This document shows positions 227 to 63,755 of a stretch of 64,000 nt of DNA, piece by piece (within the stretch, counting starts at the first letter, position 1; each line of letters opens with the position of its first letter). The position numbers were made by a program, and so were the translations under genes. The DNA lies in NCBI GenBank assembly GCA_046563655.1, contig CM102286.1:10912001-10976000 (forward strand), given 5' to 3'. The notes under the pieces are model-generated. The model did not search any database, was not told the DNA's origin, and saw nothing but the letters and a program-made list of their open reading frames with translations. Source of the stretch: Yuukianura sp. NJ FZ-2021. Its lineage: Eukaryota.

Positions 227-739
227 CTAACCTGTTTTCGGTTGACGATGAAACACATCATAGCTTTCTTCGGTATTTAAACCTTTCAATAAGTATTTGA
301 TGCGTTTTCCGTTTTTCATAACGGTTCCCTGACTCTTGTCTAGTTGATCGCACACACGCATGATGTTACTACAATACTCGTCGATACGGACGTTCTTTCT
401 ACGCCGCATCTGAGCAAGTCGATGCTCAACGGCGTTTTCAGTAAGACGATACTTAAAGTCTAGTTTGAAAGCTGCCTCAAACTTAGGCCATGACAAAGGC
501 AATAATTCGCCATCGTCATCTATGTTGGCCGGATCCCTTTTCCAGTCCGTGCAGTAATTCAACCACCAAGTTTTGGCATACTTGGTGAGGTAGAGCGGAA
601 AGTGGGTGACTTTGGCAGCGTCATCCCAGTGCTGCGTAGCAGCGACCGCCTTAAATGTTTGCATAAAAATCGTAGCTTGGGTTCCCCGTTTCCCTTCAAA
701 CATGGGGTCACCAGAAGGGTTCCACAGGAAAACAAACAC
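227..739 (-). mobile_element. Ty3/gypsy-type LTR retrotransposon gag (capsid-like) relic
   Basis: The ORF has the Retrotrans_gag pattern: PMFEG, F..VAATQHWDD..K..HFPLYL..YAKTWW, SWPKFEAAF, L....RR.N..IDEY, C.QLD, YLLKGL. It ends at a short (CTAAC)n run and the upstream frame is broken. Confidence 0.7.
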
Positions 740-2599
740 ATTTTCCGCTCACTTTGGTGCTATTAATGGCACTGGGTCAGGGCCATTTTCTCCCGAACCC
801 CTGCACCAGTATTATCTGGGTCGCTTGGCACTTTGTATAGTTGAAAATAAGTCCCTCCGGAGACGATTTCTCTTCCTTAAATTCCGGCGTGGAGTTTTGA
901 TTCTTGATGACTTACTCATTTCCACAAGCTTCATCTGAGTATGCGGATGCATGTTCCTATAGTGAAGAAAGTGCGCTATGGCATCCTGTTCTTCGGCCCT
1001 CCAGTAGCTCGGAGTTGCGCGGTATCCCCTGTTGTTCCATGCCGCTCTGAGGCCGTCAAATGTAGAGTAGGCATCACGAATTACCAGTTCTATATCACCA
1101 GTTCTCTCCGGTCGTCTGGTTTTCGTAAATGACCTACTGGAGGCAGACGCAGCCGTCCCAGTCGTCATGTTCACAAGGCCTTGATAGAACTGATCACATT
1201 TCTATTTGTTTCTTTGTAACTTTGAGACTGTGAAGTGAAAAGTGATCTAATACAAAACGTCGAAAGCTACACACTTTGAATACTGGAGACGACGATGTTG
1301 TGTATGCTGAATAGAGATTTATTCAAGTCCCTGAGTGGCAAGTACACATGAGAAACTGAAAACCAGAATGAGAGTGAGAGTGTGGCTTTCATACTAAGTA
1401 GGACAAGGATGAGAAAAAGGAAAAGAAGCACAAGGTGAATTGGTTTGTGAAGGTCTTTACAACAAAGAAACAAGTTTTGAAGGTGAACAGTAATTATTTC
1501 CTAATACATTACAGACGAGGCAAAAAAATGCATCTTAAACCTTGAAGCAGAAAAACTGGCTGATAGCCACACATTTATTGAAAACTTCTTTTTTTTTACA
1601 AATTTTCGGGGTCAACTTTCGAAACAATACTCTCCATCGTCTTCACGAAAGCGTCAATGTCAGCTCTGTAAAACGTTAACTTTGGGCCCAAAATAGCCAT
1701 TACATTTTGAGTTGTCACTGGGGAAGTCTAGGTAAAAAAAAAATATCGGTCCCTGCGGACGTTGATAAATCGTATCCGAAACTGCATCGTTTCACTGTAC
1801 CAACCATCCTCATGCGTCCAAAACGAAAGCTCCTTTGGTTCAATTAATGTTCCCACCTCGTACTAGAACTTCGGAGTGCCAGCTTTCACTGACTCATCAA
1901 TCTCTGCCACGATTGATTTGAATTGGTCGAGGATGAGTGGTCAAACATATCAATGGTAAAATAGTTTCCCCTTCCCATCATCCGATGGCTCCGTCTTCCT
2001 CCCTGGTGATCACGGCTACTTCAGAAATGAGCGTCATGCGCCGCAAAAAGAAAAATGTTAAAATTTATGGAGACATTGCTTGCTCCTTTTCTTCTTGTTG
2101 TGTGTAAACTCAAGTTTATTCAGTTGTTAAATGGATTGTGATGTTGAGATGGTTTTACATTGGTCTTTTTATACTAACGAAAGTGAAAAGGAGAGAAGGA
2201 GGAAATTGCATGATTATGCAATGTTGCTTAACCTAACAATGGTTGGGTGTGAGTGACCCTATTTCTTGACACCATTACGTAAGGGTGCATGAGAATGCGT
2301 ACCTTGGTTAAGTATGTCAGATCAAACGAGTTTGTTTGCATCTGAGAGATTATGTAATACATTACACTTCTTCTTCTGGAAATTTGCCTGTTGGAATAAA
2401 TACTCCTCCTTCAATTCTTGAAGGCATAGAATCTACTTGGCTCTATATCCCTGACACCCCTCAAATCTCCTGCAGTAGATTCAGTTCTCTCGCAGTCCAT
2501 ACTCTCAGAGGTATTCACAATAATGCTCCCTTCCATGAGCATGGAGTTTTCATACCAGAACGTCTGACGCCATGTCATCCTCCATTCCGGTCGACTCCT

Positions 2600-38395: not shown

Positions 38396-40078
38396 CTAAA
38401 CAGGATGTAGTACCCAAGTGCATGCGTCTACATCCTCTTTGTACGACGGACCTTTCGTAAGTTTTGGAGTCGGAAAATACTTCCATCCCCAACCTGCCCG
38501 TGCCCATGCGTATGACCAATCACGACATACGACTTTACTAGCCTCTCTCGACGTGTCAAACGGACGAAATTTGAATCCGATGCCGCTTTCCCCAATCCCT
38601 TTGGCAGTCCTTATCGGCTGAACTTGCCAATTCAAATTCAGATTCCGTCCTTCCTCTGACGTCAGAAACACTTTGTCGCCACGGCTACCAAGCGTCCAAG
38701 TTCTTTGTGTATCGTCGAACTTTCGGTGGAACCTAAACACCACCGGGTCATTGCACGTTGCAGACACCACTTGAATTTCCCACCTAAAATATTGGAACGA
38801 ATTCGCCCGTTTTAAAATGTATTGTCCAGTTGGTCGAAAACTTAAAACAAAATCCGACGTTACCCGCATTCCGCTGAGGTGACTGTGAAGCCGTTGCCGG
38901 AATTTTTCAGCTCAAGGATTAATTCGTTAGTGTTTTCTAATTTTTCAATGGATACCGGGTACTCCTTCTCACGGATATACATATCGTAGTGAAAATTTCG
39001 GATACATACTGCTTCATTTGAATATAAATTTTGAATTTGGCGCGGAAATTTTTCCATCAGGTTAGACACATTTTGAACTACAGCGTGATGAACCGTGTTT
39101 GCAACCTGGAGCGTATACGTGGACGCCAAGAGCTGTGTTATTTTAAGCTCTTTTAAAACTGCCCTCGTTAACTTGTCAGCCAATGCCGGCTCACGCGTCG
39201 CTAAATTCCACACCGCACACCTGAGATGCAACATATTTTCGTCCCGTTTATGACGCAACATTTCGTATATCACTTCTTCCAAGAAAATTTCCCGCTCGGA
39301 GGTAACCATATTTTCCAAATCAGTTTTGAATTCTTGAAACTTCTGGGTTGACAACTTTTCGATTAGTCCCATCACCCGTTCACGTCTCTGGCGACTCTGT
39401 ATTTTAAATATAATAAAGTAATTTATTAATAAAACGTTGAACTGCAGATTGCAGAATTTCTTTTGACGCATACTGTGATAAGTGTGGAGTTACCTTAATA
39501 TTGGCTTCCAGAGTCACAATTCGTAGCGCAACCTGATCATATTCAAGTTGGAAATCAGCTCCACATGTTTTAGGATTTTGTAAATTGTTTTCCGTTCTTA
39601 AGAACGCCATTCGAGACTTCAGTTTCCCTAGACGCGAGAATTCTTCGTCAAAGTTAGTCAGAAGCTGGGTTCGGAAATTTTGTTGCATTTTATCCAATTC
39701 CAATCCCAATTTATGGATTAGCGCCTGAAGACCAGCCTCAATTTCACCACACTCCTCGGTTGTAGAAAATATTGAAATATCTGTTAGCAGTCGCTCCGTA
39801 ATAGACCCAGTCCAGTTTTTAAAAGTTGCCTCCAAAACTTGCTGTAGTTCATTTTGCCAAAGGGTCAACCGCGGGTGAATGCCCTTAGTATTTTCCGTTC
39901 GGTTTCCTGAAATTTGTTTTTACTTTGCTGAACCACAGTTTACAAAAAAAAACAATATACCTGTTTTTACAACGTTTTATAACCAAGACGGTCTTGACTC
40001 ACCTGATGTGTTACGATTTTCCTGGCAAGTAACCACTACACTTATGAAGATGATGAAAATTTGAAATACGGATGCCAT
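38396..40078 (-). CDS. Secreted helical + putative beta-trefoil protein, paralog A (4 exons)
   Basis: Signal-peptide exon MASVFQIFIIFISVVVTCQ. Shared family motifs FPRQIQNLY...CIRN, ECG|WEI..V....DPVVFRF.RKFDD, NWQVQPI and CTWVL. Confidence 0.8.
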
Positions 40079-40390
40079 TGTTTCTATTGATTCTGTTTGT
40101 CACATTGAGTAGCTTCATACAACTCCAAGTTAATGCAAGTGAATGTGCAAATACTAGAGGTCGCGAGAGGTCAAGCTTGTTATCATTACGACCTTCGTCA
40201 TAATTTATTCTTGGAAAGTATATATGTAATCAAGTTCCAAGAAGTTTCACTACGACGACATTAGAATTCTCAGCAGTCGATAAGACCTATAGCTGGATGT
40301 GCGATTGTACGTATAATAAGTTTTCTTTAGTGATTAATTTTATTTCGAATATAGAATGTAAATTATTTCAGTAAAACAGGATGTTCAAAT

Positions 40391-42611
40391 TTATGGGCGG
40401 ACATTTTTACAGGGTGTTAGAGTCCATGTACATGCGTTTGCGTTTTCTGAACTAGCATACTCAGGCCCACGTGAGAGCAGTAGAGGAGCTTCATAACTGT
40501 AGCGACTAGAATGTGGAGGACCGTGACAAATAAACTTTGAAAAGGTATTCGATGCAGGTGATGGATAAAATTTAAACGCTATTCTGTATCCATATTGAGG
40601 AGAATAAGTTTTAACGACTGAAACTTCCCAATCCAAATTTATATTATAGGTTCCATCTGAGGCCAACATGACTCGATCTGCTTGGCTGGCGAGAGCCCAG
40701 TTCCTTTCGGGGTCATTCACCGTTCGGTGAAACCGAAAAACTACCGGGTCATTGTAATTGCTGCCTCGCACAGATTGAGGAGCCCATCTAAAGTGATATT
40801 TTCAAAATCATAGAAATTTTTTCAGGAACTCATGATTTTTTGAGTTAAAATAAGTTTGGCTAACCCGCATTCATCCTCGGTTACGTTTAATCCATCTGTG
40901 TATTTTCGATCTCGTTTCATTTTAATTTCAATATCTACAGTCCTAATTGCAGATCTTTGGTACCGTGGTGTGCCGGCATATTTCTGCAAGGACGGGTAAT
41001 TTGGCAACATTGCATTTGCATTTTGATGCCATTGTGTGATACTTCTTGCTGTTGTGCTGGGATATCGATTGGAAGGTGTAATGCCTTGAGGTGTTGAGCT
41101 GAAATTTTGATACGGTTGCGTATTTCGCAATGGCGTTTTGAGACTTTGTTGAGATTGTGTAAAATTTGGCGCTGGAGTGCTAGGACTTCTGTATGAATCT
41201 CGTGATTGCGTGCTAGGATTGTCGAACGATGGAGTAAAGGTTTGTGACGACGTCTTCGGACTTTGAAACGTATGTGTAACATCTTGTGACGATGTGCTGC
41301 GATTTTCATATGAATTTGTATATTTGTAACCTTGTGGTGTACTGAGACTTCGAGACGGAGGTGCGAAAGTAGTAGTTGGAAAAACGTCAATGGCTGAAGT
41401 TGAGGTGTATTCTGTAAATGCGGGTTTTATGAGCGGTTCTGACTCGTGGATAAATGCTGAGGAGCCAAAATTTTTAATGCACAACACATCTTTTGAAAAT
41501 AAATTTTGAATTTGGATAGGAAATTCTCTGAGGCGATTTGACGTATGGTGAACCGTGTGCGCCAGCTTAAGCGTGTAAGTTGATTCGAGATAGTGTAATT
41601 CTTCAAGTTTCTTCAAAACTGCGTTGGTAAGAAGCACAGCGTGTTCTGGCGAGTGCTTAGCCAAATTCCATACGGTCCACCGAATATCCTCAAAATTACC
41701 CTGCATGTAGTACGGTTGCGTCCTTAACAATTTGTCTGCTACCTGTTCTAGCAAAACTGTGTTGTCGTCTGTGCTCTGTATCAACGTTGCCGTCACTTCA
41801 GCCAACTTTCGATTTTTCATGTTTCGAATTAATGAGTCGACTACTCTGTCTCTGAATCGACGCTAAAAGGAATTAATACAAAAATATATAATGAATACGA
41901 ATGATTTTGTATGTAAATATTCGAAAAACGAAAACTTGGAATTAGGGATATAGGAAAGGGAGTGTTTAAAAAAAAAATTACAAACGTGGCTGCGAATCTC
42001 GATTTCTAATTTCATTTTTACCGCAAATTCTTCCTCTTTTGTAACAATTCGGGGCGTAAATTGATTATGATAGAATCTGAACCGGTCAAGGCATTTGGAA
42101 GAACCTTCTGAACCACTTTCGGATTTTAGAAATTCGAATCTTGATTTGAGCCGTTGAAATTTGGAGAATTGATTGTCGAGATTCAAATGTTGATTTCCGT
42201 GGAGTTGTTCAAAATCTTTTTTGAGTTTGTCTAGAAGTGTCTCAAGGCCTAATGTCGATTCAGAACAGTCAGAATTTGTAGCGTCATGCTCAAACTTTGA
42301 AATTTGTTCTAACAACTGCTGCGTGATTCGTGTCGTCCAAGCTTTGAAATTTGATTTCAGTAAGTCCTGTTGCTCTTGCTGCCAAATTGTCAACTGCTGC
42401 ACAGTCATGTCAGCCTGTGCTTGGTATCCTAGAGATGAGCAATGTTTTTTAAAACTTTCTTGAAAATAAATTATCCAAATAACTTCTAATATTGAGTTAA
42501 ATCGACTACGCAGGGTAAACCTGCTTCGGTTTTTAAAACAATGTTTACAATACTTTTACCTCGTGTGAACTTGAGCCACAACGTAAACCAAAGGAAATAC
42601 AGAGTTTTCAT
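40391..42611 (-). CDS. Secreted helical + putative beta-trefoil protein, paralog B (with S/T/P/Q-rich insert)
   Basis: Signal exon MKTLYFLWFTLWLKFTRG, the same exon layout as paralog A, and motifs FPIQIQNLF..VLCIKN, DPVVFRFHR..NDPERNWAL and CTWTL. Confidence 0.8.
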
Positions 42612-43208
42612 TTTTATTGTTGGTATGAAACTTGTTTAGCCTGGACTTTTTGTGGAATTAAGTTTAAGACTCAATTTTAGTAATATAACTCAGAAAACTA
42701 AAGTTATTATTGTAACACTTAGAAAATCATCGAGGAGTATGATTGCCACTTGTTCTGCAGAAAAACTTTCAGATAACAGTTTTCCTGGAACTGTTTTTAA
42801 GTTACGGAAGAAAAGGTCATGGGTCAAGAGGGAGATTACTATTTCTCAGTAATAGCCATTGCTCGAACCAAGGTAATCGCTGCATTATTTTTCGAAACCA
42901 AATGCGAGAAATTTTGTTATTACATCAAAATGCTTTAGAAATTGAGACAAGCGTAAATAAACTGAACGAGTGAACTCTTTCTTTCGCGTTATTATTTGTT
43001 AAATTAATTTACATGAAAAATAGTAAAAAAAAAAACATGCCATCTTTATTAATTCGTGTCTTTTAATATTGTAAAACATATACTCTCAACAATAAAACAG
43101 AATAAAGTTTTTTTTTTCTGTTAGGTTCTGTTAGAATCTTAAACAAAGTTAGGTGTTGTTTAAGATCCTTAGATTATTTTTGGTGATATGATTTGTGAAC
43201 GAATTTAA

Positions 43209-44821
43209 TTAAATACTCTCTAACGTCCAATGGCAGTTGACGTCACTCTGTGGGCCAAGACGCAACGATGTCTCCAAAACAGTTGTTTCAGTTTCGTATG
43301 AGTTCATCCCCGACTTTTTAGGTTTTTGACAAAGTGATTTAGTAACTCCAGTAGAAGCGGTTTCAATTTTGAATGCTAGGTCATTTCCGCTTTTTCTAAC
43401 CGGAACAAGTCTCCAATTGAAATTTTCACTTTGAGGCTCAGAACTAATGACGACGCTGTTCCTGTCGCTTCTGCTCAAGCTCCATGTACGTTCGGGGTCA
43501 TCTATCTTTCGCACAATCTTAAAAAGCGTGGTTGAATTGAAGTTTCCGCCAATGGGTTTGATATCCCACCTAAAATTGAAGCATTTGAATTTCTTGCTTT
43601 TGGATTGGATTTTTACTGCGACGAAACTTAATGGATTGTCAAAAAGTTTACATTTGACGTACCCACAGTTTTCAGCTATAATCAAGCCTTCTTCTTTCAC
43701 GGTTGCGACTTCTTGGTCTGCGTCATTGTCCACCGGCCATAGGAACTCCCTTTCTCGAAGGTAAAACTCGCTTTCCTGGTTGCGGATGCATATACCCGTA
43801 GTTCCCCAGAACAAATTTTGAATTTGGTTTGGGAAAGCATTTCGCGTTGCCTGAGATGCTTGACTGACGCGAGAGGCGTAGGCGAGTTGAATCGTACGCG
43901 CAGATGCCAATCCACCAAAGCTTTTTAGTTTGTCTAAAACAAGCTCAGTGAGCAAATCTGTTTGATGCGGCGTCTGAGATCCTAGATGACTTAGGATCCA
44001 GTAGATATGACCAAAATTGGAGTCCATAGCTGCTGAATTTGGAAACAGTTTTTCAATTACTTCGACCAGAAGAAGGTCAAGGTCACTGGGATCTCTTCCA
44101 GTGAGGTCAATGATTGGATCCACATTGTGATTCTGTATGCTTCGTACCAAAAAGTCTATTTCGTTGGGTCTGCTATTTGCCTGACGAAAACGAAGTCAAT
44201 AATGAGAAGTTTTCAAAATTGTTAGAAAAGAATCGTGGAATATGCATTTTTGAGCAGATATTGTTCACAGAATTCTAATTCACCGCGAGTATTATAATAT
44301 TTTACCTTAAGTTGTTCTTCGACATGATAAATTTTCTGCACTACCTTCCCATGGTTGGTCCGAAATTCTCGAATGCAGTTGCTGGCCGCTTCATTTCGTC
44401 CTTCTTCTCCCAAAAACTTTGACCTTGCTTTGAATTTTTCAATTGACCTTAAAAGGTCACCCAGTTCAACGTTACCGCTACCTCCGTTCAAATTTTGTTT
44501 TTCGAAATGAGCGACGTCCTTGTCTAACTTGTTCAAAACTTCTCTCAATCCTACCGTTGTTTCCGCACATTTAATTCCATCTTGAATGTTCAAAATGGAG
44601 GAACTCCAGGTTTTGAAAATATCTTCCTGCCATTGTTTTATAAGAGTTTCGAAATGACCATGTTGATTTTTCTGCCAGTCAGTTGGTTCTACTGCAAACC
44701 CTTCAATTAAAAAAGCGTGTTAAAGCGGCGTTGAAGTAACTTATAAAATTTTAAAAGACAAATATGTTTTACCTGTTTGATGAGTTATTGCAAACAAGAA
44801 AATTCCAAATACAACGATCAT
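43209..44821 (-). CDS. Secreted helical + putative beta-trefoil protein, paralog C
   Basis: Signal exon MIVVFGIFLFAITHQTG and motifs FPNQIQNLFWG...CIRN, WDIKPI...LFKIVRKIDDPERTWSL, WRLVPVRKSGNDLAFKI and CHWTL. Confidence 0.8.
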
Positions 44822-45459
44822 TGTTAGCCGATGTGAAAAACGAGTAAAGCACAAACTGCGCTGCAACTAGTACTAGAGACTGCCTGTTAAGGCTGTGCAA
44901 AATAAAAAAACAGGTCACCGAAGGTCAACTTTTTGTCATTATGTCCTCATCCCCAGCCGTCACGAATTCTGTGATACAGATAAAAACTTTTTCTTAGAAA
45001 CAAATCTGCGCGCTCTCTTCCTGATCGACGCTTGAAAAAAACGTCGAAAAGCATAAGGGATTTGATGAACACATATACAATAAATATGCATCTTAAATAC
45101 AATAAACTTCAACAGGTCTTTCAGTGACTTCTAATATATAGCTTAAACAATCTGACTCTCGTTGTTTTCTACTTGACCTCATTTGACCTTACTCTGGCTC
45201 CACTGGCATAATCTGGAGTACGGCGTTTTTATGCGCCGTAGCCCGAACAAATGTAAAGATTTTGAAATTAAATTTTTGTTTATTTTCGAACTGAAAAGGA
45301 CGCATAGCATTATTTTTTTAACTAAACTTTTGACTAGTTGTGTTTTCGACGTTACATGCAAAAAAAGCCCAAAATTTCAGCTGAAATTTCGGAAGATTTT
45401 AAAGTTTCGATGCTATGCCTTCAATGGTACAACAGATTTGAGGGACAAAACCTAAAACC

Positions 45460-47056
45460 TTACGTCAGACTTCGGACAGGAAATAGTTTAAACTTCATTC
45501 TCTGTTCAGCAACACTTCCAAACCACAAGTGATTCCTCTCTGAAATGTCTGCCACTTCTGCATCGAATTTAGTGACAAACTGTTTTACTAATATTTTTAA
45601 AATGTTTGTTGAAACATTTCTGCCTGGACATGCATGTACGCCGGCACCCCACAACCACAGTAGCTTAGGATCCATCTTTTCTGGATTATCGTCACGCATG
45701 AACCGCTCCGGGTTGTAATGCTGCGCATGTTCAAAAATGTCATTTCCCGGTTCCATTTCAAAAAGAAGCGCCCCAGGGACTGCTACCACGTCCACGTCTC
45801 CTACATAGTATGGACCAACTACCGAGTTTGCATGAGGACTACGAACACTGACGATTCCATTGCCATTTAAACGCATGCCTTCTATCACGCAGGCATGTAG
45901 AAGCTTGTTTCGTAGAGTTTCATCTATACTTGCTCCGCCCAACTCTTCTCGTAGTTGACGCCACAGATCCGAACGACTAGTTAATTCTTTTAAAATTTGA
46001 GAAGCTGATGACAGTGGTGAGGAAAGGACTTGGAAGTGCGTGGTGAGCAAGATTTCGCAAACTTCTTGTGCGGATAACTTCTGAGGGCCTTTTGCAGTCT
46101 CGCGAGGAGTATCGATCGTTGCCCGAATCAATCTGGATTCTTGCATACTCACATTATCTATATACGTTTGCACGAATGGCAACATGGCTTCCACGTACCG
46201 CTTCCTAAAGTAAACAGTAATGCGATGGAAAGTGTACTCAACAAACGTTGCTGGTAGAATGTTGCTCGCGAAGGCTGTTAGTATCATCCAATAGTAGAAG
46301 GAATCGTAGGACTGTGAAATGTCTGGCGTCATTGGAAAGGCAAACATTGCTTTAAAAATGGCTCTCACGTACGTTCGGCGCATGATGTCTTTGATGTTCA
46401 CTGCAAAGGAGTTCTTGTCTTTTAGTACATTTTGTTTAAGCTCTTCAATCGTTGCGTCCATTTCGTCGTTAACAACTTCTAAGAATTCCGACATGTGCGA
46501 GACAAAGACCTTCTTGATCAGTAACTTCATATGCTCCGCAGCATTGTACAGCTCATCTGAAAAAGCTCGACTAATGCCAGCATTGTCAACGTACTTGTAA
46601 AAGGAAAGTTGTTTTTCAGCGGAGCTGAAGTACTTATTAATCAGCTCTCGGTTACACAATACGGTCATTTTTGTTGGGCCAAGTTTTATGGTAAATATTT
46701 CTCCATAGCGCTTGTAGCAGGAGAAAAGGAAGCCTTTAGGATCAGAGGTCATGCTAATTAAGTGGCCAATTAACGGGATCCAGGAAAATACTGTAGGGAC
46801 GATTTTCAGTTTGGATTGTGTAAAACTATCGCTGTTTCGCTGTCGCTGAAATTTTCTTGCTTGATGAACCACAAGTGCGAAAATTACTACCAGAAATGAG
46901 GCTTCCAAGTACCTAAAAATAACAATTAGGTTAAATGGAAGCTAATGCTGAAAGAGTCGACTGAAATTAAATAAACTAATAAAACGAAATAAAAATTAGC
47001 TGCCGAAATTAGCGCTTTGGGGGTAATTTGTTTCTTCAAAAATTGTGAACTTACAT
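45460..47056 (-). CDS. Cytochrome P450 with CYP51/CYP7-like features; essentially single coding exon
   Basis: N-terminal membrane anchor, WIPLIGH...DPKGFL...YKRYGEIFTIKLG, EGMR (ExxR), YNPERF and the heme motif WGAGVHACPG. The open frame spans 45460-46912. Confidence 0.93.
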
Positions 47057-47749
47057 TTTCTATTAGCTCAACCTAACTTCGCACAAGCGTCCTCTTTGCC
47101 TGCCCGTGGGTTTATTCACGTTTAATTTGCTTTAGCAATTATCTTTCCCAAAAATATAATTGTGAGCTCTTGGTATCTGGTAATCCTTATATAAAGCATT
47201 TTAAAAGGTTTTAAGCATGTACTATGCATTTGAATATTTTGCGGTCTCTCTGCTTCATGTTTCCATGTTTTCAATAAAATTGACCACATTTAGCATGAGG
47301 AAAACTCGTAAAAATAGTGTATCCAAGGTTTAAAGTATTAAAATTAAAAAAAAGTCATAAATGCAGATTTTGAATTGAACCAAATGTAATTTAAAATTTA
47401 TTTAATTATGCTTCCCATCTTAATTTATGAGTACCTAACCAAAAAATTATTATATTAATTTGGCGGTTAAATTATCAAATTGATATATACTTGAATACCT
47501 ATTGTGTTAACTATCACCGTTGTAAAAAAAAAAAAAAAACTACCAATTATTATTAGAAAACTTCCTTGCGTTTTATAGTTCCGATTTATCGTTTTATTAG
47601 AATTGACACTAAATTCAATTGCTGAATTGAAGCTGCTAGCGCATATGTAATATGTTCCATTGGCCATCTTTATCATCAGTAATATTCAATGAGAAGTGTA
47701 TGTAGATGAAATATTAAATTAAAACGACCTGCAGAAACGACATTGAAAG

Positions 47750-48670
47750 CAAAATAAACCGTTGTAAACGCCGTACGTAAGTAGCGAAAGGAAGCTAGTG
47801 ACAACCCGGAAATTGTCGACTTCCGGTCAAACCGGAGCCGTATTAATCACCCCCAGGCTATGATAAACTGATTTGCAAGCCAGATTGCAAATCGGTCCAA
47901 TGGTGTCGAGGGTATAGTTAGTTCTAGTGCAGACAGACAGACAGGCAGACAGACAGACAGACTCGGTGGAAAACACAAAGTAGGTCATACTTTCCTGAGT
48001 AGGACGAGGGGCGCCATTTCGAAACTTAAATTGTCAGTATCTCTGGAACCGTAGGTCAAAGGTCAAGGTCACCTATACAAAAGTTGTTCGTCTCGATGAG
48101 ATGAACAACTTTTGTAAGGGTCATTTTCCCGATTTCCGTCAAAAATGTATTTGACCTTGACCTTTGACCCGGACCTGGACAACTTCCGGTCAAGCTGGAC
48201 ACCGATTACACACCCCTGGAACATGTGAAGCGCAACTGTGAAGGCAGACTGAAAATCGGTCCAGTGGTTCTGGAGTTATAGACGCGAATATCATGAACTA
48301 CGCCATTATACAACTTCTAAGGTCTATATCTTCAGAACCCCAGATCAAAGGTCAAGGTCACCTATACAAAAGTTGCTCGTCTCGATGAGATGAACAACTT
48401 TTGTATGAGTCATTTTCCCGATTTCCGTCAAAAAAGTATTTGACCTTGACCTTTGACCCTTAGGGGGTCGACTTCCGGTCAAACCGGGCACCGATTGTTT
48501 ACCCCCAGACCATGTCAAGTTCATCTGTGAAGACAGATTGGAAATCGGTCCAGCGGTTCCAGAGGTAGCTTGACCAGCAGACGGACGGACAGACGGACGG
48601 ACGGACGGACAGACAGACAGACAGACTCGGGGAAAAACATAAAGTAGCTCATACTTTCGCTACTTAATAA
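47750..48670. mobile_element. Helentron-associated (DINE-1/HINE-like) non-autonomous element with internal duplications
   Basis: 13-bp subterminal inverted repeat TAAGTAGCGAAAG (47778-47790) / CTTTCGCTACTTA (48654-48666), (GACA/GACG)n tracts at ~47930-47962 and ~48578-48626, and a ~115-bp block repeated at ~48055-48170 and ~48345-48460 containing a palindrome. Confidence 0.7.
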
Positions 48671-48784
48671 TCTTAGTAAGATCTCTTTAAGTTGAAACCA
48701 TTTTAGCGTGCCTTTAAATTTGAAATATTGTGGTAACGATAAAGTTAAAACTTATTATGCATTATGTCTTGACGGGGTTAAAAA

Positions 48785-50445
48785 TCAGAGAATCCGTTCT
48801 AAAATCCAGTTGCAAGCATTGTGGCCTTCCGACGGAATCTGGAGGCTGACAGGAAAGCGAGATTGTCCAGACGCAGTACTGTTGCCCGCTGAGTGCTGGC
48901 AGAGAGACCTTTGTGAAGGCTCTCCAAAATTGAAAGTGAAACTGATATCTGCGGTGTTGTATGCGTTTTCGCGAACTGGCGTCTGTGTAATGGAGAAAAC
49001 GGGATTAACGGTCCAAGCTATTTTTTCATCAGATGACCTGGAACTGAGAACAACGGAAGATCCACCCTTTGTAGCTAACCCAAAGTGTTTCTCTGGGTCA
49101 TCCACCTTTCGTTCCAGTCGGAACTTGAGGTCATGTCCACTCTCCAACGGTAGTAAAATCCAACTTTACAAAACGAAACAAGTAAAATAAAGTTGATAAA
49201 GCATTCTCAATAAATGTTTTACTCACCCGCATAATTCCTCCATTCGGTTAAGTGATTCTCCACGAAGTACCACGACTTCCAGTGGTACGTCCAAATTGTC
49301 ATTGTTGTTTCTGGTGGAGCCTGGGTAAAATACTTCCCGCAAATACATACCATTTCTAAAATTCTTTATGCAAAGCACTCTTCCCCAGATTAGGTTTTGA
49401 ATTTGAAGTGGGAACTTTTGCTTGATTTCTTGTGAAACGTCGAATCGGCGAGCCAATGACGCAAGTCTAATAGTGAATTGTGATGTGATGAGATTGAAAG
49501 ACGACAATTTGGCTAGTGTGCTGTTCACCACACTGTCTGTAAGACGGCGATCGTGACCTCCGAACTCGGTTAAAAACCAAACGATTTTTGGAAAGCCTCT
49601 CGTGAATGCTCCGGCAGTAGAAGAAATGTCGTTCAAAACGGATTCGATCAAAAAAACCAGTTCGTCCGTATCGTCAACGTCACGAATCACTGCACGCGTT
49701 ATATCCGAATCTCCGAGTCCGATGCCCTGTACAAGCAGCTCCAAGTGCTCTTTTCGAGCAGAGTCCTAAAAAAATTACTAATTTTACTAAAAATTACAGG
49801 ACTCCAATCACTCCTAGTCAAAAGCATTTTTATCATAAAAAAGAGAATCGAACCAGCGACTACGTTCACGTTCACGTACCTTAACCCCTCCTTCAAATTG
49901 TCTAATCTTGTTTTGAAGACTAGCATAACTTGTGTTAAACGCATCTCGACATCTACTTGGACCTTCCGTGACCCACTCTTCTCGTAAAAAATTTGCACGG
50001 GTTTTGATGGCTTCCAGTTGACTTAACGTGGAGGTGGGATTCGCACCAGTGCTTCTTCCCCGGCTGATCACTTCGACTGCTTCGGCATCAATCTTGCGAA
50101 GTAGTGCATTAATTCCTACAGTACTCTTGGGGCATGCGTTGGCTTCTGGATTCTGCGCAATGAGAGTCAGAATGTCCCTGAGTCCCGGTTGAGCCTCAAC
50201 TCGGCTCGTCCATTCTCTAAACAGTGAGTCCAACTTGGAGCGCTGTTCGGTTTCATTAAGAGGTGCAGATCCTGTGTTCAAAAAATTGAGATTTACAAAC
50301 AGAAAGTCTTTCGCACATGATTTTTAATTACAATTAATTACCAAACGATAGTTTTACAAATTACTAAAGTTTTACACTCACCTGAATTTCCTCTTACTTG
50401 TTTCAACACTTGCAAAATCAATATGATTGATACTAAATTTCTCAT
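48785..50445 (-). CDS. Secreted helical + putative beta-trefoil protein, paralog D
   Basis: Signal exon MRNLVSIILILQVLKQVRG and motifs C..STVGINALLRKID, FPLQIQNLIWGRVLCIKN, LCG|W, RKVDDPEK, AWTVNPV, SLCQ and CNWIL. Confidence 0.8.
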
Positions 50446-51348: not shown

Positions 51349-54300
51349 ATGGGATACGCTGCTGTTCGTAGAGTGCTTATATTTTTGGCCGTGTGGCTTT
51401 CCGCTTCGGCTTATGCAGCAGATATTGGTTTGGTAAGCAATCCATTCTTGTGCCAATTCTTTAATTGATAAGTCAAAGCACTGAAAATCATGCGCAGTTT
51501 CTAACTTCCTTTTTTAAAGATTGGCGGATCAGACGCAGAATCGGAGAGCTATATTGTTATTGCTCCTAAGAATATTTTGCCAGCATCCAACTATACGATT
51601 TTCGTGAGCGCCAACCCGCTTCAACCCGCAGACGCTGTTTGCCACCTTTACGTAGAAGTCCAGTGTCACTTGATTCGCGCCGGCGCAGACGCAAACGCAA
51701 GGCTCTTTACGCAGTCGCTAGGCAACTTCACCCTGAGATCGACCGATTCTCAAAGAGCTACTGGATTTATCCCTCGATTCATCGTTTCTGAAAACTACAA
51801 CCATTGTTTCCTTATCTTGAAAAACAAAGAAAATGGAGAAGAATTTGAGCGACGTGACCTTGTACTGTCTTCTACACAAAACAACATTGCAGGGTCAAAG
51901 GTTCTTATTCAGCTGAACAAACCGGCATACAAACCACTGGATATCGTACGCATCCGAATTATTGTGCTCAACAAATACAATCTTCCTGACATGGATCCTC
52001 AAAATATCAAAGTAAAAAGGAAAATTTCAATACATAAAGTAATATTCCAAGTTATTAGGTTGATTAATTCACTGACATGTCGTTGGAATTATTAAGGTGA
52101 CATTTAGTGACCCCAATGGCGTCAACATGAAACGGTGGCCCAACAACCGTGACAACATTACCATGGATCAGAACGGACTCATAAATCTCGACCTCCCATT
52201 AGCCGACGAGCTTGTCTACGGTAAAAAAGAATTTTTTTTTAAGAAAATTTTTAAATTTTCAAATCATCACAAAACTAATGTGATGATTTCGATGCTTTAA
52301 AACAGGAACGTGGAAAATAGACGTTAGTGCCAACGGTCAGAATGTAACCAAGGATTTTTTGATTGAACGCTACGTCCTACCCAAATTCTTCCTGAAATTT
52401 GTTGTTGGTCCAAAGCCGTACATTACCAAAGACACGACAACAATTACCGTTGATGTCCACGCCATGTACACGTACAAGAGGGCATTGAATGGACGTGTAA
52501 AACTAACGCTCCTGAATCCGAAAAGTCCAAATACAAACACTACAAGAACCGTTGAACTAAATAATGGACAAGGCGCTTTTACGTTTCATCCGGTCAACGA
52601 CCTCGGGAGAAACCTGGTAACAGAGGGGGTTGAATTGCAACTCCACGCTAACGTGTCGGAAGCCCGAACTGGTCGATCCCAAACGACAATTCATCCAATC
52701 CCGGTATTTGCTGGTGATCCATTCAGAATTACTTGGCTCAACCCAGCTAGATTTTACAAACCGGGGATTCCAGTTGACATTCAAGTCGCAATTTCCAACT
52801 ACGACAACATGCCCGTCGTTGACTCTGCGGCAGACGCCATCAAACTGATTTCCAAGGTCACTGCAGGCACAACTCTACAAAGAACAAGTTTGCCAATTTT
52901 GTTAAATGGAATCGTAACGTTTCGACTCCGGTTGCCTCCTGCAGGTCAAACTTTCGAGTCCATCAAAGTCCATTACAAAAATATAATACTGAATATTCCT
53001 CCTCCGCAACAAGTGCTATCAGATCAACCAACGGATATTTACCTACATCCGACCCTGGAGGCGAAACCGGAGGAATTGCAAAGAGGAAGCAGCATTCGTG
53101 TCAAAATTGAATCTACGAAAAAAATTTCAAATCCAAAGGTCAACTACATTCTGTGGAGCGGGCGTGAAATTGTGGGATTCCGTACTGGACTGGCACTAGA
53201 GAATGGTGGAATCAGCGTATATCTTCCAAGTGACGAGACTTATGCACAACTGAAACTCATCGTATATGTTCATTTGGACACTGGAAAGGATTCCGAAAAG
53301 TAAGTTTCAATTCATACGTTAGAACTTGGAACGATTCGTTTGCATTTTGAAAAAAGAAATATTTTGTTAGAATGCGAAGTTAATTGTGTAAATTGATTTC
53401 AGAATTATTTCTGGCACCCTTCGAATTCCCACCAATAATTACTTGAAAATGCGTCTTGGAGCTACCACGGTAGAACCCGGTACGAATCAATCAATTACTT
53501 TCGAGACACATCCTGAGTCCACAATCGCCATTCGTGGAGTGGACCAGTCTCTTCAACTTTTGTCCCGTGACAAGGGTGTCAATGATATCTCTCCAGCGGA
53601 TGTACCTTTCAATCCGTTTTACCACACTTACCGTGAAGACGGTTCTTCCAGAACCACCGCTGATTCGTACTCTGATTTTGAAGAATCAGACCTTCTCCTT
53701 CTCACGAACTCAAATCAAACGCAAGGAAGATCCAGAAGACACGTTTCGTTCCAGCGGGCATCAAGATCACTTCCCATAGCTGCTGGATATCGACCTACTT
53801 TGTCCGACTACACTCACTACGATGGACCGATACGAACAAGATCACATTTTCCTGAGGCGTGGCTATGGGAACAAATGTTGGCATCGGACTTTACAACGGA
53901 ACACTCCAAGAGAATTCCAGTAGTTCCGGACACAATAACATCTTGGTATGTTACTGCCCTGTCACTCAACGCCAGAAGTGGATTGGCAGTGACTCAGGCA
54001 CCGTCACTGCTCACCGTCTTTAGACCATTCTTCATCACCCTGAACTTGCCATATTCCGTTCCCCAGGGAGAGCAATTCGAACTCCAAGTTCTGATTCACA
54101 ATTATCTTGAGAACCCAGTTCTAACTCGTGTCACCTTCTTCAACGATCAGAGCAACATTCGGTTTATTGATTCCAGGTGAGTTAAACTGTTCCTATTTCC
54201 CTGTAAAAAATATAAGTTGTATTCAGAAATGCATTTATTCTAATGTATTTGATATATTTTACTAGGGAGAGGGCCATGGAAAATGTATCGAGGCTCGTTA

Positions 54301-56695
54301 CTGTCGAGAGGGCGACCGTCGGAACCGTGAGGTAAATGTTGCTTTTTGAGTGTCTTTCACAAGGTTGGTAAACAAAAAAAAACTTTTTCTACACCAGGTG
54401 GTACAATAACTGATGAAAGTTTTAAAATTTGTCTGAAACAAAAATCTGTATTTCTATCGTAATTTTTGCATTTAATGTGAATGGGATTTGTGCACAGTAA
54501 GATTTTTGGAAACCCTGAGGTATTGGACAACCTGTTGTAGGAAATACAATTTGTTGTATTTCGGTTGTCAAGGAACCTTGGTCTTTCATTTCCACGCCTT
54601 CGGGAAATGATATCCTTATCACCTTATCCTAATATAGACTGCTCGTGTAAAGTTATGCAATAAATTCAAATTTACAAATTCTATTATATTTGCAGCTTTG
54701 TCATAATGCCAATTGTCGCTGGTGACATTCCACTTCATCTGGAAGCAGTAGCGGACGTTGCAGGGGACGCCATTATTCAAACCATGCGTGTCGAAATTCC
54801 TGGAGTTAGAAATTGGAACCTGGTCAAGACACAGCTCTATGACGGCCTTACAACAACGCACACAGAGAAGTACACCATTCAGCGAAAACGAACCAAACGA
54901 GGCATCCAACACAAGTTGACGTTATCTGGAAATCCTGTGGCAGACAGCACGGCAATCCTTGATGGCCAGCACAACGTGTCCGGTATGGTCATTCTTCCAA
55001 CCGGTTGTGGAGAGCAGAATATGCGAGGATTTGCTCGGAACATAATGGCACTCGAGTGGTTACGAGCTAACCACATAGATGATCCAGTACTGGAAAGCAA
55101 AGCAAAGAGGCATTTGGAAACGGGCTATCAGAAGCAAATAACTTTCCGTCAAGTGAATGACGGGTCGTTCCGCTACTATCCAAGCGCCAACCAAGACGCA
55201 ACTTGGCTCACAGCCTACGTTCTACGATGTCTCACTGCAGCAAGAAAGTACATCACCATTGACGACAATGTCATACTCAACGGTCTTCAGTTTCTTCTTA
55301 AACAGCAGAATGCCGTTACAGGTCAATTCGCCGGCACAGGCGCACCAACGCAGTACGGAGCACAGCTACAAGGCATGCGCAGTTCAACATCAATAAGCTA
55401 TGGGCTCACAGCCTACGTAACACTCGCAATCATCGAAATTACGGCCGAGATGTCTAGTCAGTTGAGTCGGACAGACAAGATTCGGTATGATGCTGCGAAA
55501 AATAAGGGCCTCACGTACATTTCCTCTGAAAGCAGTCTTATGGATACGGATCTCTACAACCTCATACTCGTGACGACTACGTTAGCAGCAGCCAATCACC
55601 CCAGTCGCAAAACGTTTTTTGACAAAATGGTACGAGCAGGGAAAACTAAGCCAGACAAAAACGTCAAATGGTGGGAAATGGCTCCAGAACAGACTCCGAG
55701 TGCTCTTACGATAGAAATGACTGCGTATGCTCTCTTAGCTCATTTATGGATGAACCAAGAAACGGCCAGTGACAGTACACCGATCGTCCTTTGGCTTCTG
55801 GAACAGAAAAAGGAGAATGGAGGATTTCTTACGACGCAGGATACCGTGGTGGCTTTTAACGCACTTTCTAAATATGCCCAAAGAACAGTTTCTGGAAGCT
55901 ATCAGAGTGATGCAGTAACCATCGACGTGTTGAACAAAGACGATCTTCTAAAAAGAGTCGTTCTCAATAGAACAACGCGAGATGCTCCACTAGAATTTGT
56001 ACTTCCAGCATTTTTAGAAGACAACGAATTCACCATTAACGTAACAGGAAAGGGCAAGGCTTATATTCAGTACGCCGAATTGTTCCACAACGAAAGGATT
56101 GCCAACACAACAAACTTCTACGACATAACTGGCATGGTACAGTTTTTAAATATATTAACATTAATCAGTTTAACTTACTAATTGATTATACAGAATTCCA
56201 GAAATGACACGAAATGTAAATTTACATAAAATATTTTGTGTTTTCCAGTTGACAAAGGTCAACGACTCTAACAAAGACGACGTCTTTGATTTTGAGCTCT
56301 GTCTGCAACTACGCAATCGCTCATTCGATGCAAGCCAACAAGTCATTGCAGAAATTAAGCTACCGACTGGATTTCAATTCGAGCGGGAAATTCTCGACCT
56401 CGTAACTCCCATCAAGTACAGAAAAAATAACACCGTTGAGAAAATTGAACTCCAGGGCAAGGGAACGAAAGCAGTTATTTACTATACACATTTGAATTTT
56501 CCGAAACAATGTCTCCAATTGCCAGTCCATATCTACATTAAGTCAACAACTCGCTACACTGGAACAGTTCGTGTAACAGATTACTACAATCCTCAAGTCA
56601 CGGACACATCTACAATATTTCCAGACAGAACAATGACAGTGTGCGATATCTGTCTCGTTAGTGGAGGATGCGATGTCATTTCAGGGTGTATTTAA
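51349..56695 (+). CDS. Thioester-containing protein (TEP / CD109 / alpha-2-macroglobulin family), multi-exon
   Basis: Signal peptide MGYAAVRRVLIFLAVWLSASAYA, IQLNKPAYKP, RYVLPKF, VDQSL, RSHFPEAWLW, VPDTITSW, FRPFFITLNLPYSV, thioester GCGEQ (55003-55017), WLTAYV, IEMTAYALL, GGFLTTQDTVVA and a receptor-binding domain with DYYNP. Confidence 0.95.
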
Positions 56696-57012: not shown

Positions 57013-58927
57013 TTATGAGTCGTCAGCTGCCTTCTTTTTCGGAGCTATGCGACCTTTGCCTCCGTGCATTTTCGACATCATGTGTTGATTTAGGTAGTCC
57101 TTGAGCTTGAATACTTTCCCGCATAAAGCACACTCGTGACATTCTTTGGCGTAGAACCCTGTGGTAGGCCTCACTCCATGCTTAGCAGCCAAATGTCGTC
57201 GTAGTGACATGGCTTCGAAGAAACTGTCGCCGCAGTAGTTACACAGTTCGGATTTTACACCAGAATGTTTTAGAACGTGACTCCGTAGACTTTTCCTACT
57301 CATGAACATCTTGTTGCAAACATTACACTCAAAACTTTTCTGTCTAGTCTTATCGTGCGTCGTTATATGCTTCTTTAATTCACTCTTGCTTGCGAATGCT
57401 TTACCACAAATTTCACAAATGACGTCCCGGATGCCCTCGTGTACTGTTTTAATATGAACTTGCAATGTCCTCTTGTCACATAACCACTTCCCGCAAAACT
57501 CACAAGGACAACGCTCATCTTCGCTCGCATGACGCTTTTGGCGATGAATGTCGAGGTAATTCTTGGTTGGAAACCTTCTCCCGCAACCCTCCACTTCACA
57601 TTGAAACGGTTTCTCTGTACCGTGAACTGTAACTTGATGCAATCTGAGACGGCTTTTCGTTTCAAAAGTTTTGTCGCAAACAGAACAACAACGACCTACC
57701 AGGTCTTTAGCGGTTAACCCCTGACCATGCTTGTATTTCAAATGCCACCGATACCTCGCGCGTCGGGGATAAATTTTTCCACACACTTCGCATTTAAAAG
57801 TTGGTTTTTCATCGTGAACAGATATCATGTGTCGCCTGAATTTCTCTTCTGAAGTAAACGAAGTTTCACACTTGTGTGGGCAAACCAACGGTTCTGCTGT
57901 CATGTTTGGTTGATGAGAATTTTGTGCAGATTCCTCAGACGGGTCCTCGATAGTTAAAGAACAGGCACTTGGAGATTGGCAAACGGTGCTATCCTGAACG
58001 TTCCTCTCCGTTGTTTCGTCAATAAAGTTTGTAATGGCTGATGTTGAATCGGTTGAGATTCGAATAGAAGTAGGCGCCTTCTTAATTTTCCGAACATTAT
58101 TTTGTTTCATACCTGAATAAAGTGATTCAGATTGTTTTAGATTCACTAGTTTAACGCTTCCCTTGTATGATTGAAGATAAAGTATAAGTATAACCTTTTA
58201 ATTTGATTATTCTCGTTTTTCGTGTTGCACGACGCAGTAGTACTTCGCCTCCGGGTAATAATGGGTCTGATAGAGGATCAAGTTCAATGGAGAAAGGCGC
58301 ATCTTCTTCTTTAATTATAGGAAAGTTGACTTCAACCTCAGCAGACTCCAACTTCACGTGTACTGGAGGTAAGTCTTGGAAAGGATCATCTGAATGCGTT
58401 ACAAAGGACGACCAGAGAATGGAAGTCTCCAGAAGCGTCTGGACATAAGACCCCTCAACGGTTAGAGTCATAAATTTTTTGTAAGCCGTATTCAATGTGG
58501 TTAGCGCCGACAAGCATTGGAAACACATCAGCAATCGACAATCGGGTGGCACCAGCTTCTAAAAAAATACAAAACCGCTTTTAACAAAATGAAAAATCCA
58601 TTTGTTTCATTTGTGAAATCGCTGAAAACTGAAGCTTACTTTATGTAACTTGAGACTTGCTTCAAATACTGTTGAAATTGCATCCGAAATCGAAACATCT
58701 TGGATACTTTCCTGTTGTCCGGCGCATGCCTCTTCACTTTCGGAGTTACGAACCAAAAATATACTGCAATGGTCGCCGCCACTGATGTTCCCATTTTCAT
58801 TAGGCAGTGCAGTCAAGACCCTTCTGCAGTTAGCACAAGGCATTGCGTTGGTAGAATTTATTTCCTGGTTACGAGTGCGATCCAGGAGTGTCGTAGTACT
58901 GTTATTGTTCGCATCTGTGATCAGCAC
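57013..58927 (-). CDS. C2H2 zinc-finger protein with N-terminal ZAD-like C4 domain (copy 1)
   Basis: About 9 C2H2 fingers in the last exon. CANC and CFQC pairs lie in the two preceding exons. The 5' end is uncertain. Confidence 0.88.
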
Positions 58928-61773: not shown

Positions 61774-63755
61774 TCAAGCAACAGATTCCCTCCTTTTCTG
61801 TGCAGTGTGCCCTTTACCTCCATGCGTCTTCGACCTTTGGTGTTGTCTGAGGTATTCCTTCAACTTGAACACTTTCCCACATTGCGAACATTCGTGACAT
61901 TCGTTTGCGTCAGGACCAGTCGCAGGCCTGACTCCATGCTTAGCAACCAAGTGCCGTCGGAGGGATACCGTCTGCAGGAAAGTATCGCCGCAGTAGTTGC
62001 ACTGCTTTACACCAGAATGTTGTTGCAAACGATGACCTCGCAAACTCCTCGCACTGATGAACAGCTTGTTGCACACCGTACATTGAAAACATTTTTGTCG
62101 AGACTTGTCATGCGATTCCATGTGTACCACTAGCTCACTTCTGGTTGTGAATGCCTTACCACAAATCTCACAAATAACGTCACGAATCCCGTCATGTACT
62201 GCCTTCACATGCATTCGTAGTTTGTTCTTGTCACGTAACAATTTACCGCATATCTCACAAGGACAACGGTCATTTGCCTTCGTATGCTGGTATAGGCGAT
62301 GAATGTCGAGGTAATTTTTCGTTGGAAACTTTCTTGCGCAACCCTCCACTTCACACTCAAACGGTTTCTCTGTACTGTGAACCGAAATTTGATGCGTTTT
62401 GAGTTGACTCTTAGTTCCAAAAACTTTAGGACAGTCAGGACAACTACGACCTTCAAGGTCATCAGAGGTTAATCCATGACCGTGCTTGTACTTCAAATGT
62501 CTCCGGTATTCCGTGCCTCGTTGATAACTTTTACCGCACTCTTCGCAAGTGAAACTCGGGGTTTCACCGTGTACGGACTTCAAATGTTCCGTGAATCTCG
62601 CTTCTGAAGGAAACGAGGTTTCGCAGTTGTGAGGACAAAGTAATGGCTCTTTCAGTTTGGTTGGTTCTGAGGAATTCTGTGCGGATTCGGCAGAGTGGTG
62701 CTTGACAGTTAAAGAATTGGCACTCGCAGATTCATGGTCCGCACAGTTCTCTTCCAAGTTTAGAGAACGTTTGATATCTTCCTTTGTCCGTCTACGTTCC
62801 AACTCTTTCTTAGCAACATTTTTCTTGACTGATCTTCTGTTATCTTTAGGCGGGATTTGTCTGGAAGTGGTGACATTCTTCCTCAGGTTAACCTTATTTC
62901 GTACCGCACCTGAACAAAGTTATTATATAAATGTTTGGTAAGTGTATTTGGCTTAAGCTTTTTCTAATTGTTAATTCTTCAAGTTTTGTCTTATAATATC
63001 ACCTTTCAATTTGTTTGTTCGCATTTTTCGCCTTGAAAGCCGGAGATGAGCTTCGTCTTCCGACGAGGTATATGATATATGGAGCTGATCCATCACAAAA
63101 GATGAATCCTCTTCCTTAATTACCGGAAAATCGGTGTCATGTTCATCCGTTTCCACCTTCACATTTACTACTGCCGAGTCGTCGTTCAGTAAAGGATCAG
63201 ATTCAAAATCCCGAGTTGCTGCAAATGACGACCATAGAATGGAACTTCTCAACAGCTTCTGGATGTATGAGCCGCCGACAGTCAGCTTCATAAACTTGAT
63301 GTAGGTTGCATTCAAACTAGTTAGCGCGGAGAGGCATTGAAAACACATCAGCAATCGACAATTGGATGGCACTTGCTTCTAAGAAAAAATTGATAAAAAG
63401 AAAAACTATTATTTTGAACAAAAATAAAATTAACTCAGTCGATTAGTGATTCCAGACTTCTTACACTTACTTTATGTAACTTGAGATTTGCCTCAAATAC
63501 GGTTGATATCATGACGGAAATCGGAATATCTCGGATAGGTTCCTCTTGTCCGACGCAGGGCTCATTTTCCGCATTACGTAACAAAAATATACTGCAATCG
63601 TCTCCGCCATTGATGTTTCCATCTTCATTAGGCAGTGCAGTCAAGACCCTTCTGCAATTGGCGCAAGGCATCGCTGTTGTCTGTAATTGATTTTGCCAGA
63701 TTACTGCCCGTGCCCTGCGTATCGCTCAATCCTGGTAAACTGCAATTCGCTTCCC
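61774..63755 (-). CDS. C2H2 zinc-finger protein with N-terminal ZAD-like C4 domain (copy 2)
   Basis: Clear paralog of 57013-58927 with the same exon layout (MPCANCRRVLTALPNE, CRLLMCFQCLSALT, FPTKNYLDIHR, RDVICEICGKAF). The 5' end is uncertain. Confidence 0.88.

Follow-up and report, generated by a model that had tools for sequence, protein, structure and literature searches.

Four tandem genes for putatively secreted proteins with a predicted VHS-like helical domain and a candidate beta-trefoil on contig CM102286.1

Background

The 30K lipoproteins and microvitellogenin (Pfam family Lipoprotein_11, PF03260) have attracted interest for storage, anti-fungal recognition, and anti-apoptotic and cell-penetrating uses. 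Two structural reports assign to their N-terminal domain (residues 1-87 or 1-91) a right-handed superhelix of six helices and of the VHS type, with a ricin-type trefoil after it (PMC3628942, PMC4224370), and in another report BmLP1 binds beta-1,3-glucan (PMC7911669). Longer silkworm forms of ~420-436 amino acids (aa), with the Lipoprotein_11 domain at ~205-435, are also on record in PMC4535582, together with forms rich in serine and threonine (S/T-rich) and with the proteins that bind ENF peptides (ENF-BPs), haemocyte proteins that have ~200 extra N-terminal residues and are described there as lacking a signal peptide; as such long forms are known, an N-terminal extension is not new in itself. 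In a literature listing for Lipoprotein_11/PF03260, all relevant reports concerned Lepidoptera. Here, we analyzed 64,000 nucleotides of contig CM102286.1 (positions 10,912,001 to 10,976,000; hereafter the window, from whose first base all positions are counted), an intron-bearing animal genome with a GC content of ~39%, in which four paralogous genes (A to D) lie on the minus strand within 38396-50445.

The genes share an architecture of three modules, two of which recall the domain order of the 30K proteins. We see about even chances that A-D encode secreted binding proteins with a core made of a VHS-like domain and a probable trefoil, restricted to one lineage, whether or not they are kin to the 30K family.

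Results and discussion

Gene models and shared protein features

The starting material consisted of minus-strand stop-to-stop open reading frames (ORFs), which between 38396 and 50445 form four sets of three similar blocks; the DNA was then read directly and the models were joined by coordinates (Table 1). Each model comprises four exons without any internal stop, and the encoded proteins are 469 (A), 617 (B), 440 (C), and 457 aa (D) long. All 12 introns are of the GT-AG type (63-159 nt), and their phases (1, 0, 2) are identical and their positions homologous in the four genes. Pairwise identity of the full-length proteins amounts to 24.1-38.1% (426-444 aligned residues), and 50 columns of the alignment are invariant. 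These structures, and the paralogy they reveal, are best read as the product of tandem duplication followed by fast divergence. A six-frame profile search of the window, with profiles built from copies A-D themselves, recovered no fifth copy (next ORF at E ≥ 0.13). Intron 3 of gene C (43570-43662) keeps the frame over its 93 nt and contains no stop, so that a read-through ORF of 328 aa (43209-44195) arises, 31 residues of which are intron-encoded.

That the models represent decaying pseudogenes or chance ORFs is hardly credible. Open frames of 440-617 codons over four exons have been kept in copies that are only 24-38% identical, and canonical splice sites, identical phases, and the 50 invariant residues (six Cys among them) were retained as well, all of which would be lost in the absence of selection. 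What could be cited in favor of decay comes from the coding differences that separate the window from public contigs: of the 20 with the best support, 13 alter the residue and seven are synonymous. The sample is small and selected (drawn from 40 of ~1955 differences); it fits fast protein evolution and proves nothing.

The six conserved Cys are distributed evenly over exons 2, 3, and 4 as one pair per exon, with the members of the exon-3 pair located in CIxN and in the ECG that ends this exon. The pair within each module is predicted to form a disulfide, and three such intradomain bonds would probably suit a secreted protein. A hydrophobic N-terminal stretch was found in all four models (hydropathy 1.32-3.12 for the highest-scoring stretch of 12 aa that begins among residues 1-20, a crude test that differs from SignalP), and a hydropathy scan of A-D detected no transmembrane-like segment after the N-terminus; we infer from this that the proteins are secreted. 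An invariant segment in exon 3, FPxQIQNL...CIxN, joins the helical to the beta-rich domain, and three Trp are invariant (numbered W342, W393, and W464 in gene A), all of them as part of a W-x-[IVL] unit.

Much of this agrees with an initial annotation of the locus, which had proposed four diverged paralogs with a common exon plan, signal peptides (recovered here in terms of hydropathy), two Cys in exon 2, the FP.QIQNL....CI.N segment, and three W units. Its end points were exact, as 38396 is the final base of the gene A stop codon and 50445 the A of the gene D ATG. The span that it assigned to a four-gene family does contain the four paralogs, together with an unrelated cytochrome P450 gene between C and D, and the exon with two Cys that it estimated at ~110 aa is indeed predicted to be helical, with a size of 130-137 aa.

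Gene B stands apart by a 154-aa insert between the CIxN strand and ECG, in which serine, threonine, and proline (S/T/P) account for 45% of the residues vs. 19% in the remainder of the protein, and which looks like a mucin-type linker in a loop of the first W unit. A side observation concerns the same stretch: one contig each of the public runs X1 and X2 (same sample) carries a joint at 40944-41389 in exon 3 of gene B that skips 444 nt, i.e., 148 codons in frame and almost exactly the S/T/P-rich insert, possibly because of a length-variable or insert-free haplotype or of another paralog elsewhere. Another contig joint (42508>44561), with no more than 28 letters on the shorter of its sides, was disregarded.

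Table 1 Coordinates of the four genes, their exons, and two neighboring genes in the window
Feature	Position	Strand	Description
Gene A	40078-38396	-	4 exons
Gene A exon 1	40003..40078	-	ATG at 40078; signal-peptide-like hydrophobic N-terminus (best 12-aa window starting within first 20 residues, hydropathy 3.10)
Gene A exon 2	39494..39906	-	N-terminal helical module: predicted long helix and three-helix bundle, 2 conserved Cys
Gene A exon 3	38864..39396	-	VHS/CID-like helical domain (fold inferred from gene C model), FPxQIQNL...CIxN junction, first W-unit, ECG end
Gene A exon 4	38396..38783	-	Beta-rich C-terminus: W-units 2 and 3, closing C-x-W-x-L, stop at 38396-38398
Gene B	42611-40391	-	4 exons
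Gene B exon 1	42560..42611	-	ATG at 42611
Gene B exon 2	42022..42428	-	N-terminal helical module
Gene B exon 3	40865..41862	-	Helical domain, junction, and 154-aa S/T/P-rich insert
Gene B S/T/P-rich insert	40960..41421	-	Mucin-like, inside first W-unit; coordinates derived from residues 301-454 of model B
Gene B exon 4	40391..40787	-	Beta-rich C-terminus
Gene C	44821-43209	-	4 exons
Gene C exon 1	44773..44821	-	ATG at 44821
Gene C exon 2	44306..44700	-	N-terminal helical module
Gene C exon 3	43663..44180	-	Helical domain (confidence of the model in the text) and junction
Gene C exon 4	43209..43569	-	Beta-rich C-terminus
Cytochrome P450	45460-46941	-	Single ORF (intronless), 493 aa; Pfam p450, E 8e-28; between C and D, unrelated to the family
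Gene D	50445-48785	-	4 exons
Gene D exon 1	50382..50445	-	ATG at 50445
Gene D exon 2	49880..50271	-	N-terminal helical module
Gene D exon 3	49227..49765	-	Helical domain and junction
Gene D exon 4	48785..49163	-	Beta-rich C-terminus
Thioester-containing alpha-2-macroglobulin-type gene	51505-56695	+	MG3, MG4, A2M, TED, and receptor-binding domains

Relatives in public databases

In public protein data, the family is nearly devoid of relatives. With the gene C ORF as query, a word-based search of 5.8 billion proteins gave 1542 candidates for scoring, none of them at E ≤ 0.01, while HMMER with a profile of exons 3 and 4 against 1.84 billion representative proteins returned two matches at E ≤ 1e-3 (labeled P0001 and P0002). 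P0001, a Bacteroidales repeat protein that matched only via a chance ILQIQNL motif, was rejected as a relative. P0002 is a protein of 220 aa from an ENA assembly (E 1.1e-4 with the profile and, in BLASTP, 4e-7 with gene C) with a signal-peptide-like start, two or three helices that correspond to the last ones of A-D, the junction motifs FPKSIQNM (FPxxIQN in general form) and CIKN, and three Trp-led units; it shares 12 invariant positions around the junction with the four paralogs, and differs from them in having neither the N-terminal module nor most of the helical domain. P0002 itself matched no Pfam family and no PDB sequence, and a search for its homologues retrieved only itself (a singleton). 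No further member was confirmed in two scans of metagenomes, which gave 188 and 109 pattern matches, or in a viral scan, which gave 24.

The helical domain

The structure of the core was predicted with AlphaFold2 (AF2), using the gene C read-through ORF as query and the exons of the paralogs as alignment. The exon-3 domain was modeled as eight helices, with a predicted local distance difference test (pLDDT) score of 81-95 for residues 1-120 and 59 for residues 121-130. When superposed on three 30K N-terminal domains drawn from the top 1000 Foldseek chains, it covered nearly the whole 30K domain with a root-mean-square deviation (rmsd) of 2.6-3.0 Å, the lowest values in the list, and it also superposed on the matching stretch of an ENF-BP (7wns). 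The part of the 30K proteins that is matched, their N-terminal superhelix, is thus suitable in both type and location, and in the predicted model the helical domain of A-D looks like the same structural type (VHS/CID-like). The proposal that a helical domain directly precedes the beta-rich C-terminus was supported. In a Foldseek search with the whole model, six 30K chains ranked 2, 4, 6, 7, 9, and 11 of 350,542 (E 0.18-0.78, template modeling (TM) scores ≤ 0.24), beside latrophilin GAIN/HormR, which has another helical-then-beta layout; we take this ranking as support for the architecture only. For gene A, complex prediction with the products of exons 3 and 4 yielded ipSAE values of 0.22, 0.39, and 0.21 (mark 0.34).

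The beta-rich C-terminus

The conserved beta pattern begins within exon 3 at FPxQIQNL, before the boundary to exon 4, and can be divided into three units. Unit 1 contains QIQNL, CIxNF, Y-x-RE, a hydrophobic strand, and ECG; unit 2 consists of W-x-I, F-x-F, W-x-L, and V-x-L; unit 3 of W-x-V-x-P-[VI], F-x-F, a Cys strand, a hydrophobic strand, and a second Cys, after which a closing W-x-L strand follows. Three Trp-led units with a closing strand are the appearance expected of a (QxW)3-type trefoil, and on this pattern the C-terminal ~175 aa, starting inside exon 3, are somewhat better explained as a beta-trefoil than as another fold. Ricin-B-type (QxW)3 lectins (RicinB_lectin_2, PF14200) likewise have three successive Trp units and a W-x-[IVL]-x-P-[IV] strand, whereas A-D lack the Gln at the QxW position, have units of unequal length (~56-61, 49-52, and 62-71 aa), and are without a Pfam match. 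In the low-confidence model, four strands fall on unit 2 and another four on unit 3. Among the ESM Atlas look-alikes, all those bearing a family belong to beta-trefoil families (RicinB_lectin_2, CDtoxinA, and Inhibitor_I66, scores 0.79-0.80).

Several results weigh against a trefoil core and a kinship with the 30K proteins. AF2 assigned a pLDDT below 50 (24-43) to residues 127-323 of the gene C read-through. The Atlas scores are below 0.9 and hence leads only, and one third of shuffled proteins also yield ten matches of the same clan. The three-fold internal repetition has no statistical support, as hhalign between units gave E 0.022 over 18 columns for 2 vs. 3 and values of 0.78-0.79 when unit 1 was compared with the others, and the spliced C-terminal alignment compared with RicinB_lectin_2 (21 bacterial segments of the 24 matches listed, three partial ones having been dropped) reached a probability of 0.2% and E 0.26, which is no better than the E 0.43 of the helical domain as control. 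Lipoprotein_11 was not matched by the exon translations (E ≤ 1), the four exon-4 products, or P0002 (both E ≤ 10) in hmmscan searches of Pfam, and no 30K chain (Bmlp3, Bmlp6, Bmlp7, ENF-BP) was retrieved at E ≤ 10 from 177,635 distinct PDB sequences with three family profiles and one single sequence (P0002). Pfam likewise offered no trefoil or lectin family for the exon translations (E ≤ 1) or the four exon-4 products (E ≤ 10).

These scores leave room for a rather unlikely alternative, namely that A-D form an orphan secreted family with a non-trefoil beta domain, whose likeness to the 30K proteins amounts to a helical repeat followed by beta strands. Such a family would explain why every similarity score to 30K and trefoil families falls in the noise range, why GAIN/HormR proteins rank beside the 30K chains, and why two structure predictors gave no confident beta domain. 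It also draws on a marginal match of one of the four paralogs to another family: in exon 4 of gene B (40391-40801, minus strand), DUF3750 was hit with E 2.1e-4 and 22.4 bits, below the cut-off of 25 bits, over residues 27-93 and profile positions 49-110 of 128. It accounts poorly for three invariant Trp closing units of ~50-70 aa that have the same hydrophobic pattern and are followed by the C-x-W-x-L strand, for the presence of the same three units in P0002, and for the restriction of family-bearing Atlas look-alikes to trefoils.

Relation to the 30K lipoproteins

Given the Pfam and PDB searches above, the proposed membership of A-D in Lipoprotein_11 was not borne out. Their two-domain core has a 30K-like layout, which may reflect either descent or convergence. 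Compared with the 30K lipoproteins of known structure (Bmlp3, 4iy8/4iy9; Bmlp6, 4pc4; Bmlp7, 3pub/4efr), A-D have eight helices (~125 aa) rather than six (~90 aa) in the helical domain, an extra N-terminal module of 130-137 aa, and four exons, show no detectable sequence similarity, and have a candidate trefoil in place of a demonstrated one. Typical 30K proteins carry a signal peptide, and A-D have a signal-peptide-like N-terminus by hydropathy; the latter sets them apart from the ENF-BPs (7wns), to which they likewise show no sequence similarity.

A true descent of A-D from Lipoprotein_11 as extremely diverged members, comparable to the long ENF-BP forms with their N-terminal extension, is distinctly unlikely in our view, and would imply, at the same low likelihood, that the family predates Lepidoptera or exists outside of them. 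It is favored by the same order of a helical and then a beta domain, by the close and nearly complete superposition on the 30K N-terminal domain and on the matching stretch of 7wns, and by the clustering of 30K chains at the top of the Foldseek list. Further parallels come from the literature, where the silkworm long and S/T-rich forms resemble the 440-617 aa sizes and the insert of gene B, and where typical 30K paralogs are mutually only 24-26% identical (PMC7911669). The glucan binding of the 30K proteins is, by analogy, a model for experiments and not evidence on A-D.

We consider it likely that the family lies outside Lepidoptera, because of its short introns and of the P450 gene located between C and D. 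Lepidopteran genes differ from the pattern seen here, in which 12 of 12 introns are shorter than 160 nt and genes occur at about one per 2-3 kb. The nearest solved relatives of the P450 are, weakly, CYP51 sterol 14-alpha-demethylases (best E 4.5e-19, 71.5 bits), and its sequence would place it as a divergent, CYP51-clan-like member, intronless although the genes around it otherwise bear introns; only the CYP2, CYP3, CYP4, and mitochondrial P450 clans are known in insects, and a CYP51-like P450 would be unexpected there.

The N-terminal helical module

An AF2 model of gene A exon 2 (four-row alignment; model m134a610851d0) comprised four helices (residues 15-49, 51-80, 85-109, and 116-136) with a mean pLDDT of 73.5 and a predicted TM score (pTM) of 0.53. 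Residues 51-137 match the three-helix bundles of many unrelated families, e.g., spectrin and plakin repeats, GAT domains, and Group 5/21 mite allergens, all below the mark of ~13 for helical bundles. Foldseek with this model gave no match under E 1.6, 7wns was not among the 50 matches listed, and no relatives of the exon-2 alignment were found among longer proteins (8000 candidates scored). The ESM Atlas look-alikes were all heterogeneous (scores ≤ 0.82). As modeled, the module is helical and of a generic fold. An added N-terminal helical module had been proposed together with a possible lipid-binding or effector role; the module stands, and no test pointed to either activity.

In the organization that we propose, the signal peptide would be followed by a first module made of a long helix and a three-helix bundle, by a right-handed alpha-superhelix of ~125 aa of the VHS/CID type, and, linked to the latter via FPxQIQNL...CIxN, by a beta-rich module of ~175 aa with three units that each end in an invariant Trp. 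Outside the cell, the proteins may act as lectin-like or pattern-recognition-like binding proteins, in which ligands would be bound by the beta domain, while the superhelix would serve as a rigid support and the N-terminal bundle would allow self-association or the binding of partners.

Genomic neighborhood and population data

The thioester-containing gene lies head-to-head (divergent) with gene D, and ~1 kb separates the two starts. The closest matches of its TED block are human A2M and CD109 (E 1e-38) and Anopheles TEP1 (E 6e-34). The adjacency is at most a hint of a humoral-defense neighborhood. The promoters give no support for immune induction, as the upstream regions of A-D (312-638 nt) hold no kappaB-like sites in any of the four (expected 0.01-0.44) and their GATA and TATA counts are near expectation. 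Other neighbors in the window are an ionotropic glutamate receptor fragment, a two-pore K channel, a FUT8-like piece, and C2H2 zinc-finger genes, including two similar single-ORF genes at 57013-58197 (394 aa) and 61774-62919 (381 aa), both on the minus strand. A fragment of a Ty3-type gag was found at 227-748 (minus strand), and an Rfam search of the window was negative.

DNA contigs that cover the region come from two studies. Run X4, from a second sample and study, covers parts of all four genes at ~90-96% nucleotide identity, which indicates that the cluster is present in that sample as well; the P450 stretch is almost without cover in this run, and the uncovered part constitutes no evidence. 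Between 38000 and 51000, the contigs of run X1 are split by likeness (> 99%, 95-99%, 90-95%, and < 90%) into 343, 441, 532, and 457, a roughly even split which suggests that one sample contains several diverged haplotypes, strains, or close species. At 47750-48680, two to three tandem copies of a ~290-nt element (267-nt copies 82% alike) are flanked by CAGA/GACG microsatellites and contain a 47-nt inverted repeat; public contigs pile up there to a depth of 100-200x that of the flanks, with many joints, which marks the element as a high-copy repeat of this genome.

Conclusions

The present practical value of this work is a clean annotation of four previously unannotated genes. If their core is not 30K-like, A-D constitute a well-defined orphan secreted family and a good test case for the origin and divergence of lineage-specific extracellular proteins. 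If it is truly 30K-like, the origin of a supposedly lepidopteran-specific family would shift outside Lepidoptera, and the conserved junction motif would mark a structurally essential part. On a bolder proposal, which we regard as improbable, the superhelix-plus-trefoil design would not be a lepidopteran invention, and a secreted superfamily of great age and very fast evolution would exist in another animal lineage, with A-D and P0002 as its first members and with a disulfide-bearing three-helix-bundle module added in A-D; if this were true, the head-to-head thioester-protein gene would fit a role of the family in humoral recognition.

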